Source of the DNA: Malacoraja senta
Taxonomy: Eukaryota
Length of the DNA: 64,000 bases
Assembly: GCA_038087875.1 (NCBI GenBank)
Contig: CM075991.1
Location: 7,814,001 to 7,878,000 of the forward strand
Reading direction: 5' to 3'
This document shows, in pieces, positions 927 to 61,963 of this stretch (the stretch's first letter is position 1; each line of letters starts with the position of its first letter). The position numbers were made by a program, and so were the translations under genes. The notes under the pieces are model-generated. The model ran no database searches. It saw nothing but the letters and a program-made list of their open reading frames with translations, and was not told where the DNA came from.

Positions 927-1460
927 GTTGTAGGAAAGATGTTTAGGAAGGAACTGCAGATGCTGGTGTACAGTGGAGTTAGACACAAAATGCTGGAGAA
1001 ACTCACCGGGACAGGCAGCATCTCTGGAGAAAAGAATGGGTGACATTTCGCGTCAAGCCACTTCACCCGTCTGAAGACTGGTCTCGACCCAAACCGTCAC
1101 CGATTCCTTTTCTCCAGAGATGCTGCCTGACCCGCTGAGTTACTCCAGCATTTTTGTGTCTATCGTAGGAAAGATGTGGTTAAGCTGGAAAGAGTGCAGA
1201 AAAGATTTACGAGGATGTTGCCAGGACTCGAGGGCATGAGCTGCAGAGAGAGGTTGAGCAGGCTAGGACTTTGTTCCTTGGAGTTCAGGATGTTGAGGGA
1301 TAATCTTATAGAGGTGTATAAGATCGTGGGTGGAATAGATAGGCCAAATGCACAGTCTTTTACCCATCGTGGTGGAATCAAGGACCCGGGGACATAGGTT
1401 TAAGGTTGTGGGGGGGGAGATTTAATAGAAACCTGAAAGGCAAGTTTTTTTACACGGCAA
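927..1460 (+). mobile_element. CR1 LINE ORF2 C-terminal fragment, interrupted by a PLE fold-back
   Basis: ORF 1176-1397 LERVQKRFTRMLPGL...LIEVYKI matches the CR1 C-terminus seen in ORF 52625. Confidence 0.85.
943..1164. mobile_element. PLE-derived fold-back element
   Basis: Inverted arms flanked by the direct repeat GTAGGAAAGATGT (930-942 / 1165-1177). Confidence 0.8.
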
Positions 1461-1614
1461 GTTTTTTTGAATGTTGTTTTGTGTTGTTATATTTTTCCTT
1501 GCATATTTATGTTTAATTCTCTTGGCCTGGCAAGTGTTGACAGAGTTGTTCAGACTGGGATGCTCTCCAAGTACCAAAGCCCTGAATGGCCAGGCAGTCT
1601 GTTATGAAAGTGTA

Positions 1615-1920
1615 GTTGATTAGTTTAGTGTTACAGCGCGGAAACAGGCCCTTCGGCCCACCGGGTCCGTGCCGACCAGCGATCCCCGCACATTAACACC
1701 ATCCTACACCCACCAGGGACAATTTTTTACCTTTACCAAGCCAACTAACCTACAAACCTGGAGTGTGGGCGGAAACCGAAGATCTCGGAGAAAACCCACG
1801 CAGGTCACGGGGCGAACGTACAAACTCCGTACAGACGGCACCCGTAGTGGGGATCGAACTCGGGTCTCCGGCGTTTCATTCGCTGTAAGGCAGCAACGCT
1901 ACCGCTGTGCCACAGTGACA
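1615..1920 (-). mobile_element. HE1 V-SINE
   Basis: tRNA-like head with A/B boxes, V-domain (GGAGTTTGTACGTTC...) and CR1-type tail. Confidence 0.9.
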
Positions 1921-1994
1921 ACCAAATGTTGGCCAGGATCCTGGGAGTGGAGTTGGGAACAGTTCCTCACGTCAGTGTATTAAGTTTAGACTTT

Positions 1995-2200
1995 TGACGT
2001 TAGAGACAGAGTGCGGAAACGGGGCCCTTCGGCCAACCACGTCCACGCCAACCAGCGGCACCCCGTACACTAGCCTACACAAGAGGGGCAATTTGCAATC
2101 TTTACAGTCAACCTACAAACCTGCGTGTCTTTGGAGTGCGGGAGGAAAGCGGAGCGCCCGGAGAAAACCAACGCAGATCACGGGGAGAAGGTACAAACTC
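1995..2200 (-). mobile_element. HE1 V-SINE, 5'-truncated
   Basis: V-domain and tail similarity to other copies. Confidence 0.75.
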
Positions 2201-2427
2201 AGTGTGGTCTACTATATTACAATCTTATACTTAGTATGATTGTCCCTGATGTATAGCAGGATTGTCACTGAAATGTATGCATAAACACATGCCACTGTGC
2301 TTAGGTACATGTGACAAAGTACTGTTGAACCATTGAAACGTTGGCCTGCAGGAGAATACTACCACAGTGACTGAAAGAATAACGATCGATTAAACACCTG
2401 AAATAATTCTATTTAATCGTGGCTCCC

Positions 2428-2620
2428 TGTACAATTTTACAGAAGCCAATTGACCTACATACCTGCACGTCCTCGTAGGGCGGGAGGAAAGCGGAGCTCC
2501 CGGAGTAAACCCACACAGGTCACGGGGAGAACATACAAACTCCGTACAGGCAGAACCCGAGGTCAGGATCGAACCCGGGTCACTGGCACTGTCAGGCAGC
2601 AGCTCTGCCACCGTGCCAGC
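2428..2620 (-). mobile_element. HE1 V-SINE, head plus V-domain
   Basis: B-box GGTTCGATCC and V-domain. Confidence 0.8.
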
Positions 2621-3319
2621 CTATGCCCTGCACCACGTTCTATGCTATGATTTCTCTGCGCCAACCCTTTCCGTGTGAGTCTGCTGGCACTGTTCTCTCG
2701 TACAGACTCTTCTTCGGTGTCTGGGTGCCAGGGATGTGGAACAGTTAGTTCCTTCCTCCACCTCCCCTCCTGCCCTGCGACATTTTCACATCTTTGTAAA
2801 TCTGCAGCGTTTAAACCCGCCTGAGTTCTGCAGATGTCTATCATGCTATTTATTTTTAGCAGTTCCTACTTAATATTTCTGACACTTTTTCCCCTCCTCG
2901 CCTGGTTTACCACAGCTATTCTGATCTTCCTGTGCATGTTGCGTGATCAGAATGTTTAAACAGCAACACACGCACACTTTCTAATCCACGAGTCTGCTGC
3001 ACCATTAACCCCCTATCTCTTTACGTCTGGTCCAACCACCCCCCCAATCCTCTCCATTCAAAGGCCTTCATCTCAGTACTTGGGTCCAGAATTGTAAAAT
3101 CACGTCAAAGGTTTCATCCCAAATGGCGGCCAGTGCTAGTCTTCCTCCTCAATGCATTCATCCTAGTTTCCTGACTACTTTTACAAGACACAAGTGGAAA
3201 CAAAAGGTTGCAATGCCCACAGTTCACAATTCATTTAATTGCCACTGCAACAGCATGCCTTGTATTTGGATGGCATTGAAAGTGCACTGCTGAATAATAG
3301 TTTCCAAGGGCCCTTTCTG

Positions 3320-4173
3320 TCTTTGCCTCTCTCACTCCCTGCCACTCTCTCTCTGCCTCTCTCATTCTCTCTCCTTTTGCCTCTGCCCCTCTCTCTGCCC
3401 CTCTCTCTGCCCCTCTCTCTCTCTCTTTGCCTCTCTCTCTCTCTCTCTCTCTTTGCCTCTCTCTCTCTCTCTCTCTCTCTCTGCCTCTCTCTGCCTCTCT
3501 CTGCCTCTCTCTGCCTCTCTGCCTCTCTCTCTCTCTGCCTCTCTCTCTCTGCCTCTCTCTCTCTCTGCCGCTCTGCCTCTCTGCCTCTCTCTCTCTGCCT
3601 CTCTCTCTCTGCCTCCCTCTCTCTGCCCCTCTCTCTGCCCCTCTCTCTCTCTCTACCCCTCTCTCTCTCTCTGCCCCCTCTCTCTCTCTCTGCCTTCTCT
3701 CTCTCTCTCTGCCTCTCTCTCTCTCTCTGCCTCTCTCTCTCTGCCTCTCTCTCTCTGCCTCTCTCTCTCTGCCTCTCTCTCTCTGCCTCTCTCTCTCTGC
3801 CTCTCTCTCTCTGCCTCTCTCTCTCTGCCTCTCTCTCTCTCTGCCTCTCTCTCTCTCTCTGCCTCTCTCTCTCTCTGCCTCTCTCTCTCTCTCTGCCTCT
3901 CTCTCTCTCTCTGCCTCTCTCTCTCTCTCTGCCCCTCTCTCTCTCTCTGCCTCTCTCTCTCTCTCTGCCTCTCTCTCTCTCCCTCTGCCTCTCTCTCTCT
4001 CTCTGCCTCTCTCTCTCTCTGCCCCTCTCTCTCTCTCTGCCTCTCTCTCTCTCTGCCCCTCTCTCTCTGCCTCTCTCTCTCTGCCTCTCTCTCTCTGCCT
4101 CTCTCTCTCTGCCTCTCTCTCTCTCTCTGCCTCTCTCTCTCTCTCTGCCCCCTCTCTCTCTCCACCCCTCTCT
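3320..4173. repeat. (CT)n microsatellite with periodic CTGC interruptions
   Basis: Read directly from the sequence. Confidence 0.97.
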
Positions 4174-60013: not shown

Positions 60014-60344
60014 TAAACTAAAAATGCAATGCTTTAATCTCTCATTTTTTATCCATGAGCTGATATATAATTACTATTCTCCACGTTTGCTGTGTGTGCG
60101 TTTGTACTTATTATTGTGAATTTTATATTTACTCAATATTCCAATATTAAAAAGAAATTGGCAGTGTATTTTCTCTGCTGCCAACCCTGCTCTCCCACAC
60201 AAAGCAATTTATTGGAGTTAGCTAGCCTGGGGCATGAATCTGTTTTAAGACATCACCCATCCATTAGCCACTGGTTTAAATCCTTGGTTTTTAAATGGCA
60301 GCTTTGAAGTAATTTGTGGCATCAGTTATCCTAGAGCCAGTTCA

Positions 60345-60592
60345 GTTTAGTTTAGTTTATTGCTACGTGTTCCGAGGTACAGTGAAAAGTCCCCGTTGTG
60401 TGGAAACCAGTCAGTCAGTGGAAAGACAATACATGATGACAATCGAGCCATTTATAGTGTGTAGATACATGACAAGGGAATAACGTTTAGTGCAATGTAA
60501 AGTCTGATCGAAGGGTCACCAATGAGGTAGAAAGTAGTTCAGGACTGCTCTCTAGTTGTGGTAGGATGGTTCAGTCGCCTGGTGACAGCTGA
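60345..60592 (-). mobile_element. Rex1/Babar-type 3' tail fragment
   Basis: Similar to 14058-14288. Confidence 0.6.
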
Positions 60593-60714
60593 TCCATATC
60601 CCTCCCATTTCCTTTCATACCTGAGCACTAGTTTCAGTGACCTGGGCAGAAGATCACCTGGGTCCCGTTGACTATGCATTCCTCAATCCATCACCATTTA
60701 AAAAAAAAAAATTC

Positions 60715-60995
60715 TGCCTTACAGTGTTGCGTGCTGAAGTGGATGACTACGGGTACTGTCTGTACGGAGTTTGTACGTTCTCCCCATGACCTGCGTGGGT
60801 TTTCTCCGAGATCTTCGGTTTCATCCCACACTCCAAAGACGTACAGGTGTGTAGGTTAATAGGCTTGGTACAAGTGTAAATTGTCCCGAGTGTGTGTAGG
60901 GTTGTGTTTAATGTGCTGGGATCGCTGGTCGGTGCAGACTCGGTGGGCCGAAGATCCTGTTTCCGTGCTGTATCTCTAAACTAAACTAAACTAAA
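60715..60995 (+). mobile_element. HE1 V-SINE with damaged head
   Basis: V-domain and (CTAAA)n tail. Confidence 0.85.
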
Positions 60996-61112
60996 AAAAA
61001 AAGAAAGTTCTCTTTGACTTCCCTTCCCTTCCCCATTCCTTCTCTCCAGAGATGCTGCTTGTCCCACTGAGTTACTCTGGTATTTTGTGTCTCTAATGGG
61101 CAAGACCACTAA

Positions 61113-61329
61113 AGGGCCTGTCCCACTTTCACGACCTAATTCACGACCACTGCCGAGTTTGCCCTTGACTCATACTCGCAGCATGGTCGTCACGAGGTCG
61201 TAGCAGGTCATGATGCTAGTCGTAGGTACTCGTGGCATCAAGTAGGTCGGGGCGTTTTTTCTAGCATGATGAAAAATGTCCACGAGTAAAAAAGGTCGTG
61301 AATTAGGTCGTGAAAGTGGGACAGGCCCT
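61113..61329. mobile_element. PIF/Harbinger-type MITE (type C)
   Basis: Perfect TIR AGGGCCTGTCCCACTTTCACGACCTAATTCACGACC; TSD TAA. Confidence 0.92.
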
Positions 61330-61790
61330 TAAGTCTGGGAGCTTATGGACGAACGGTCCTAGGTTGAACACCCTGAAGACTGTGGTCATTAATTGAATGG
61401 TCGGTGTGGGCAAGATGGGCCGAAGTGCCAGTTTCCACGCTGTATGACTCTATGACTCTGTCACTGCGCCATTTCTCTGTAGCAAGCAGTGCATCATGAA
61501 GAAAATACCATGAAGGAACTTATTGACATTCTGAAATTGCTCACCAATAAATTGAAAAATCAGTACTCTACATTTCAATCCGGTCTCCAGTCTAAAGGGT
61601 CAGCTCAAATAAAGGAGGCCCCTTCTGAGCTAGGCCCAATGGATTCTTGCACAAAATGCTGGAGGAACTAGGCAGAGCAGGCAGCAGCTGTGAAGGGAAT
61701 GCATAGGTGACGTTTCAGGTCAGGACCCTTCTTCAGACGATAAGGAGAAACGGGTGCCAAAGAAACATGCAAATAGAACGATTGGAGATG

Positions 61791-61963
61791 TTTAAGAAAG
61801 AACTGCAGATGGTGGAAAAATCGAAGGTAGACAAAAATGCTGGAGAAACTCAGCGGGTGAGGCAGCATCAGTCTGAAGAAGGGTCTCGACCCGAAACGGC
61901 ACCTATTCCTTCGCTCCATAGATGCTGCCTCACCCGCTGAGTTTCTCCAGCATTTTTGTCTAC
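61791..61963. mobile_element. PLE-derived fold-back
   Basis: Perfect flanking direct repeat GAACGATTGGAGATG (61776-61790 / 61964-61978). Confidence 0.85.

Follow-up and report, generated by a model that had tools for sequence, protein, structure and literature searches.

Fold-back elements in a Malacoraja senta genomic window as likely independent, 5'-truncated insertions of a Penelope-like element

The DNA considered here is a stretch of 64,000 nucleotides from Malacoraja senta (assembly GCA_038087875.1, contig CM075991.1, positions 7,814,001-7,878,000, forward strand). It is called the window below, and all counts refer to it alone. One repeat, related to the end of a Penelope-like element (PLE), occurs in it as 48 arms, which were collected by BLAST and with a profile derived from 14 pieces of the window, and which together span 4,730 bp, 7.4% of the sequence once N bases are excluded. 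Fourteen pairs of these arms stand head to head and make up fold-back elements, about one per 4.6 kb; these 14 loci bear out the initial annotation of this DNA, which had spoken of at least 12. Its size range of 160-230 bp was too narrow, as the elements measure 133-458 bp, most of them being built of two terminal arms only (133-236 bp). Positions within the repeat are counted from the C of a CTGAAGA core (+1), and the consensus terminates at +131.

The connection with PLEs comes from a stretch of the minus strand (5322-5089) that encodes the C-terminal part of a GIY-YIG endonuclease domain, with one in-frame stop codon. This remnant shows 72% identity over 92% of the length to a Leucoraja erinacea protein (P0001; E 1.5e-22), and is identical to P0002 at 47 of 73 residues. 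A homologue search with this remnant yielded 50 candidates, 19 of which passed, and those that are named come from cartilaginous fishes. Pfam alone did not detect the remnant, and on eight homologues it gave three weak GIY-YIG matches below the cut-off. In the same 5'-truncated copy there follow a 3' untranslated region (UTR) with a pyrimidine tract, a minimal hammerhead motif (core C at 4885) and the end of the pseudo-long terminal repeat (pLTR), together occupying 4803-5088 on the minus strand. This succession, from the end of the open reading frame (ORF) through the pyrimidine-rich 3' UTR to the terminal part of the repeat, is continuous in three copies (4803-5330, 35960-36278 and 47542-47830), and both the Penelope origin and the link to GIY-YIG-encoding elements proposed in the initial annotation are thereby supported. 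The hammerhead is deleted from the last of these copies, which belongs to a partial tandem on the minus strand (47542-47951), with the endonuclease end and 3' UTR at 47542-47830 and a second arm, bearing a mini inversion, at 47855-47951. Other fragments of PLE ORF ends, devoid of the terminal repeat, were seen at 29860-29945 (minus strand) and 58780-58831 (plus strand).

No PLE-type reverse transcriptase was found in the window by tblastn; homologue P0004 carries, upstream of the endonuclease, what we take to be reverse transcriptase-like motifs. The repeat itself corresponds to the pLTR at the 3' end of an endonuclease-bearing (EN+) PLE of skate type. The window copies end before the CX2-5CxxC linker, which is carried by homologues P0002, P0003 and P0008 and which marks Neptune and Nematis according to PMC8557442; from the linker in these homologues, the family probably belongs to the Neptune clade. 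General descriptions of PLEs are given in PMC8969392 and PMC5718144.

The 3' ends of the arms are concentrated at two sites, separated by about 36 bp, which are the main outer ends of the elements: 26 of the 48 lie at +86 to +104 (mode +91 to +95) and 13 at +127 to +131, three values near +124 being alignment overrun into the flanks. The 36-nt piece between the two sites is the PLE tail. Exactly one tail is present in 12 of the 14 fold-backs and two tails in none (p=0.012). The arm opposite the constant end, formerly described as variably truncated, thus also has its outer end mostly near +91 to +95 or +127 to +131, and it is the inner junction that varies. The 5' ends of the arms (20 of 48 at -4 to 0, where overlap at junctions may add a few bases) cluster about 30 bp upstream of the hammerhead's scissile bond.

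Direct repeats at the element ends were counted as a target site duplication (TSD) from a score of 12 upwards, and seven of the 14 fold-backs, listed here without strand, have one. Six of them, with their flanking repeats, had been cited in the initial annotation and are present in the sequence: 943-1164 (13 bp, at 930-942 and 1165-1177; tail on the left arm), 5431-5654 (15 bp with one mismatch; tail left, symmetric junction at a 9-nt palindrome), 28122-28279 (14 bp with one mismatch; the copy nearest to the consensus, at 98%, tail right, left arm ending at +46), 40246-40806 (12 bp, exact; tail left), 57038-57237 (14 bp, exact, in a LINE-like repeat; subfamily B variant, tail right) and 61791-61963 (15 bp, exact; a subfamily B copy with the tail on the left, whose arms agree at all of the 41 sites compared). 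The seventh, 48756-48955, is new; its tail is on the left, and the first 7 bp of its 20-bp TSD, which has two mismatches, overlap the element end. The length of 12-15 bp given earlier therefore holds for the six cited elements, and the range is now 12-20 bp. The locus 40246-40806 spans 561 bp because an element of about 325 bp with terminal inverted repeats (approximately 40287-40611) is nested in its tail and splits it. Beside the 61791 element, at 63185-63229 and 1.2 kb away, a 45-bp near-copy of its right junction, including a copy of the TSD, was noticed.

Several controls bear on these duplications. None of 182 shuffled pairs of left and right flanks taken from different elements reached a score of 12 (maximum 11), and 15 of 397 random position pairs did so, the 12 with scores of at least 19 being probably simple-repeat pairs. 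No TSD was seen around any of 15 single-arm copies, against seven of 14 fold-backs (Fisher p=0.002), the bounds of single arms being less sure. At 57038, once the element and one repeat are removed, the sequence becomes colinear with the LINE-like paralogues at 26542 and 24561; the site is present as a single copy in both, and the flanking repeat is therefore a true TSD. Such a paralogous empty site was available for this one of six sites, no paralogue spanning the other five. Target-template homology of 2-3 nt occurs at the tail end in four of the seven copies with TSD; at the tailless end it amounts to about 7 nt in 48756 and to about 7 nt, imperfect, in 40246.

A relaxed search in the other seven fold-backs and eight single arms revealed no convincing new TSD except a candidate at the left end, 45691, of an old subfamily C fold-back with the tail on the right (45700-45881), where the repeat is 9 bp exact or 13 bp with two mismatches. 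No TSD was found for the partial, tailless subfamily C element 6764-6896, for 8424-8593 (subfamily C, tail left, six non-consensus bases common to both arms), for 9276-9504 (tail left), or for the chimeric 18465-18675, with a left arm of subfamily B and a tailed right arm of subfamily A. The element 23057-23271 lies beside a (TA)n run; both its arms are tailless, its palindrome runs about 11 bp into non-element flank, and its target duplication is inverted instead of direct. In the longest fold-back, 35960-36417, the ORF end, 3' UTR, hammerhead and pLTR (35960-36278, minus strand) face a tailed arm (36279-36419, plus strand), and this copy connects the short form to the coding element. Single tailed arms without a detected TSD lie on the plus strand at 24913-25032 and at 62345-62474, the latter spanning -1 to +131.

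The inner junctions were placed with a split-alignment script in 13 fold-backs and by eye in 35960, and they represent 12 types among the 14 elements. Two types recur: the palindromic junction of 5431 is that of 23057, and 6764 shares its junction with 28122, a member of a different subfamily; the recurring types have 3-4 nt of microhomology. Mean microhomology is 2.6 nt, compared with 0.72 nt at random breakpoints, in a set of 13 fold-backs and the 47855 mini inversion; five of these 14 breakpoints lie in diverged copies and were chosen manually. Three subfamilies can be told apart at diagnostic sites, and each has formed fold-backs of its own; the two arms belong to the same subfamily in 11 of 13 cases (permutation p=0.0004; 28122, one arm of which is too short, was omitted); 18465 is clearly mixed and 943 ambiguous. 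The number of junction types, the three subfamilies and the microhomology together point to repeated new formation at microhomology hot spots rather than to the spread of one master. We therefore consider it likely that the fold-backs are independent, heavily 5'-truncated insertions of an endonuclease-bearing PLE, and not copies of a fold-back master.

The initial annotation had proposed the latter, namely one or a few non-autonomous fold-back families, the transcripts of which PLE proteins would retrotranspose as whole units. Retrotransposition as the cause is supported by our data, and insertion as a unit agrees with the TSDs enclosing whole fold-backs, with the two recurring junction types, and with the 5' ends at -4 to 0, which could reflect a short master RNA; non-autonomous PLE derivatives do exist, according to PMC8557442 and bioRxiv 10.64898/2026.07.22.740005. 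However, a family inserted as a unit is at odds with 12 junction types in 14 elements, one of the repeated types being found across two subfamilies and both at sites of microhomology. The closest match of no arm points to a shared fold-back source, and the long element with the ORF end extends the lengths into a continuum. Moreover, the transcript of such a unit would form a stem of 53-98 bp, as in the 12 copies folded, hiding its priming sites. A family moving as a unit thus seems improbable to us.

The TSDs and the pairing of arms bear also on whether the fold-backs arose after insertion, either from two single-arm insertions, one into the other, or by replication template switching at a single arm. 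Single arms are common, 18465 is chimeric and without TSD, 23057 could be a product of palindrome correction, and the protein of a lizard PLE cuts its own pLTR (PMC11167929). Yet one TSD surrounds both arms in seven of the 14 loci, and the one-tail rule and the subfamily concordance of arms also count against later events, which we regard as a highly improbable source. Origin at the time of insertion, by all routes taken together, is very likely.

The polarity of the arms bears on these routes. Nine of the 12 tailed copies have a tailless arm that extends further inward than its partner, which alone carries the tail; two copies show the reverse and one is symmetric (p=0.065). As each arm in those nine copies holds sequence absent from the other, neither arm could have templated the other. 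The polarity fits priming from both cut target ends, considering that the protein of Poseidon_Ac, a PLE of the lizard Anolis carolinensis, acts on both strands by cleavage and extension and is a predicted dimer (PMC11167929). Double priming is, within the explanation by independent insertions, the route to which we give a slight preference.

According to this mechanism, the PLE protein would make a staggered cut at the target, and both target 3' ends would prime reverse transcription, one at a start near +94 of the RNA and the other near +130. The cDNA begun at +94 would usually reach about -4 to +2, where the RNA probably has its 5' end or a strong stop, and that begun at +130 would usually halt earlier. 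The two cDNA 3' ends could then anneal by 1-4 nt and repair would fill in the remainder, the outcome being inverted arms, one tail and a TSD. It is conceivable, although we propose it only tentatively, that a single PLE complex primes both cut ends, that the RNA 5' end lies at the initiator-like TCAGT before the hammerhead, and that the two short strong-stop cDNAs anneal. In vitro, the Poseidon_Ac protein needs RNA up to nt 172, and hammerhead cleavage is unnecessary (PMC11167929). Since copying there starts at 111-118, any copy whose sequence stops at the start sites should be without the binding signal and incapable of a further move. By this analogy, drawn across clades, the fold-backs would lack downstream sequence needed by the protein and were probably dead on arrival.

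Self-priming during insertion, in which the first cDNA or an antisense RNA folds back at microhomology and copies itself, with the endonuclease trimming the hairpin to one tail, has been proposed for rotifer PLEs, including a version with antisense RNA (PMC3846280). The equal tailless arms of 23057 with their inverted flank agree with it, as does the usual concordance of arms, and an antisense template combined with a 3'-overhang cut would yield the observed polarity. On the other hand, snap-back of a tailed first cDNA predicts that the tailed arm reaches further inward, which was found in two of 12 copies. The junction of 57038 has no microhomology and would require a 2-nt loop, the arms of 18465 come from two subfamilies, and in vitro priming occurs from target DNA on sense RNA (PMC11167929). 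We find self-priming rather unlikely as the general route.

Several points weigh against independent insertion by double priming. Only 14 events from one window are available, and the polarity is not significant alone. Self-priming with staggered resolution predicts the same polarity, and snap-back synthesis fits the palindrome of 23057 better. Deletions after insertion at the hairpin axis could mimic different junctions, and the hand-set breakpoints in diverged copies inflate the microhomology. Half of the fold-backs (seven of 14) have no clear TSD, and 18465 may represent two separate insertions. Finally, the biochemistry comes from an element of the Poseidon clade, while that of the window looks Neptune-type.

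The hammerhead motif noted in the initial annotation has the core, the bulged base, a 4-bp stem II and the palindromic 15.2-16.2 of the minimal type I described in PMC4209133. Stem II is kept in six of ten pattern matches. Rfam gave no hammerhead match at the gathering score, and covariation among 16 copies did not exceed that of shuffles (176 of 500 were as high), as expected for decaying copies. Only one of the 48 arm 5' ends lies within 2 nt of +29, the 5' end that cleavage would make. The symmetry axis, earlier placed at the hammerhead, is found at its 5' edge and not at the cleavage site. In the folded copies the hammerhead core is base-paired into the hairpin. The hammerhead is a passenger in the fold-backs and does not set the element ends.

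The preferred 5' site itself, at -4 to 0, is a short palindrome and a possible splice acceptor downstream of the pyrimidine tract; it also resembles an initiator. A donor-like site overlaps the PLE stop codon (5089, 47770 and 36265 on the minus strand, 58789 on the plus strand), an acceptor-like site stands just before the hammerhead, and a splice joining the two would keep the consensus in frame. An intron of Drosophila virilis has its end at this same 5' edge of the hammerhead (PMC4209133). Formation of the 5' ends from spliced RNA was rejected, there being no upstream exon common to the single arms. It was also considered whether the +1 frame through the hammerhead and tail could be the start of an ORF; it is open for 43 codons in the consensus, but a stop occurs at +58 in 10 of 43 arms, and a search with the 40 residues gave three matches, none to a PLE protein, so this idea is not supported.

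As a class, these elements are not new, since an inverted pLTR with a one-sided tail and a TSD is published PLE anatomy. In PMC3846280 and PMC8557442, complex PLE insertions have an inverted pLTR, a one-sided tail of 30-40 bp and TSDs of 8-10 bp, and the asymmetry of the fold-backs is this form of ordinary insertion. The likeness to EN+ PLE insertions described there includes head-to-head terminal copies, the tail on one arm, a TSD around the whole unit, palindromic junctions, partial tandems and a hammerhead in the pLTR. In contrast to the rotifer cases, the window units mostly consist of two terminal arms, their TSDs measure 12-20 bp instead of 8-10 bp, and they have a sharp 5' hot spot at -4 to 0. 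Very short PLE insertions, with a median of 128 bp, are reported for Chlamydomonas (PMC9977147).

Poseidon_Ac offers a biochemical parallel: its reverse transcription in vitro begins in an AC-rich stem-loop, at two internal sites that bound the tail and lie 111-118 nt into an ORF whose beginning is within the hammerhead (PMC11167929). The window element shares with it the two start sites bounding the tail, the AC-rich end, a similar distance from hammerhead to start, and ends that are not set by the ribozyme. It differs in clade, as the skate and shark homologues have the CX2-5CxxC linker, and target and template frequently share 2-7 nt at the window junctions, in contrast to Poseidon_Ac, whose priming in vitro proceeds without homology (PMC11167929).

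Three further systems invite comparison. Miniature inverted-repeat transposable elements (MITEs) are short non-autonomous DNA transposons with inverted repeats, a TSD and high copy number. The fold-backs are like them in all these outward respects, but their termini are not fixed on both sides and their TSDs vary in length, and they have no common interior and originate from a retroelement end; we rejected this identity on the variety of junctions, the three subfamilies, TSDs of 12-20 bp and termini differing by the tail. In twin-primed L1 inversions, the second target strand primes on the RNA and the inversion is joined by microhomology inside one TSD. There each of the two cDNAs copies a separate part of the RNA, while in the fold-backs both cover the same stretch of about 90 nt, which results in a hairpin. 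Non-LTR retrozymes are likewise short, non-coding and PLE-related, with a type I hammerhead; according to PMC7229834 and bioRxiv 10.64898/2026.07.22.740005, however, they are head-to-tail tandems processed from hammerhead to hammerhead, whereas the window has head-to-head pairs with a minimal core and ends off the cleavage site. No tandem array of the repeat was found, and for these reasons, together with the single 5' end near +29, the retrozyme identity was rejected.

Our literature search found no paper on miniature fold-backs in cartilaginous fishes, although figures, supplements (Fig. S2 of PMC11167929), Repbase or Dfam may hold them. Double priming was not found stated for PLEs, with most subscription papers, supplements, Repbase and Dfam outside the search.

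All 12 fold-backs that were folded form stems of 53-98 bp on either strand, with z values of -13 and -24 for two of them, and three of four single arms tested fold no better than shuffles. The initial annotation had envisaged a double-stranded RNA hairpin in an intron. The long stems support its first part, if the copies are transcribed; as to the intron, a Pfam search for host exons in 117 of the 161 stop-free stretches of the window gave two weak matches below the cut-off, and no exon was recognised. For the region 56100-63700, 22 sequencing runs are listed, 21 with part of the region, from 12 studies, one of them with at least half of the words, and no RNA run is among the 22. The repeat patterns gave no loci in the metagenome, genome and viral contigs searched, and none of 127 pattern matches was confirmed in a protein-alignment scan of metagenome contigs.

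The window is rich in other repeats, and 47% of it is sequence repeated inside the window itself. LINE-type reverse transcriptase fragments, detected by tblastn with a chimeric homologue as query, lie at 20696-21392, 37556-38251 and 52976-53107. The intervals 3316-4174, 6915-7711, 43267-44918 and 5804-6003 are taken up by long arrays of microsatellites and by an assembly gap of 200 bases, and the output of inverted-repeat searches is cluttered by a (TA)n array near 7100-7650. The terminal motif of the element nested in 40246 is found at 10 other window sites, mostly flanked by TAA/TTA, a pattern known from PIF/Harbinger-type MITEs. An 89-bp unit, in about two copies each at 16267-16436 and 29954-30122, adjoins this terminal inverted repeat motif.

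How Penelope elements acquire their inverted repeats and tails is described as an unsettled question in PMC8557442 and PMC11167929. In the fold-backs both ends, the junction and the TSD are contained within 250 bp, and rival models of PLE end formation can thus be counted from one assembly. If true, the strong-stop rule would account at once for the inverted repeat, the tail on one side, the TSD and the preferred 5' site; if, in addition, the window is typical (0.22 per kb), the order of 200,000 events per Gb would be expected in batoid genomes. The batoid copies would then document PLE chemistry, would often be misidentified as MITEs, and would supply many long RNA hairpins. The fold-backs also matter when the repeats of cartilaginous fishes are annotated, as they look like MITEs there, and they are a possible source of double-stranded RNA. 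Their main value lies in the clues they give to how Penelope elements insert.

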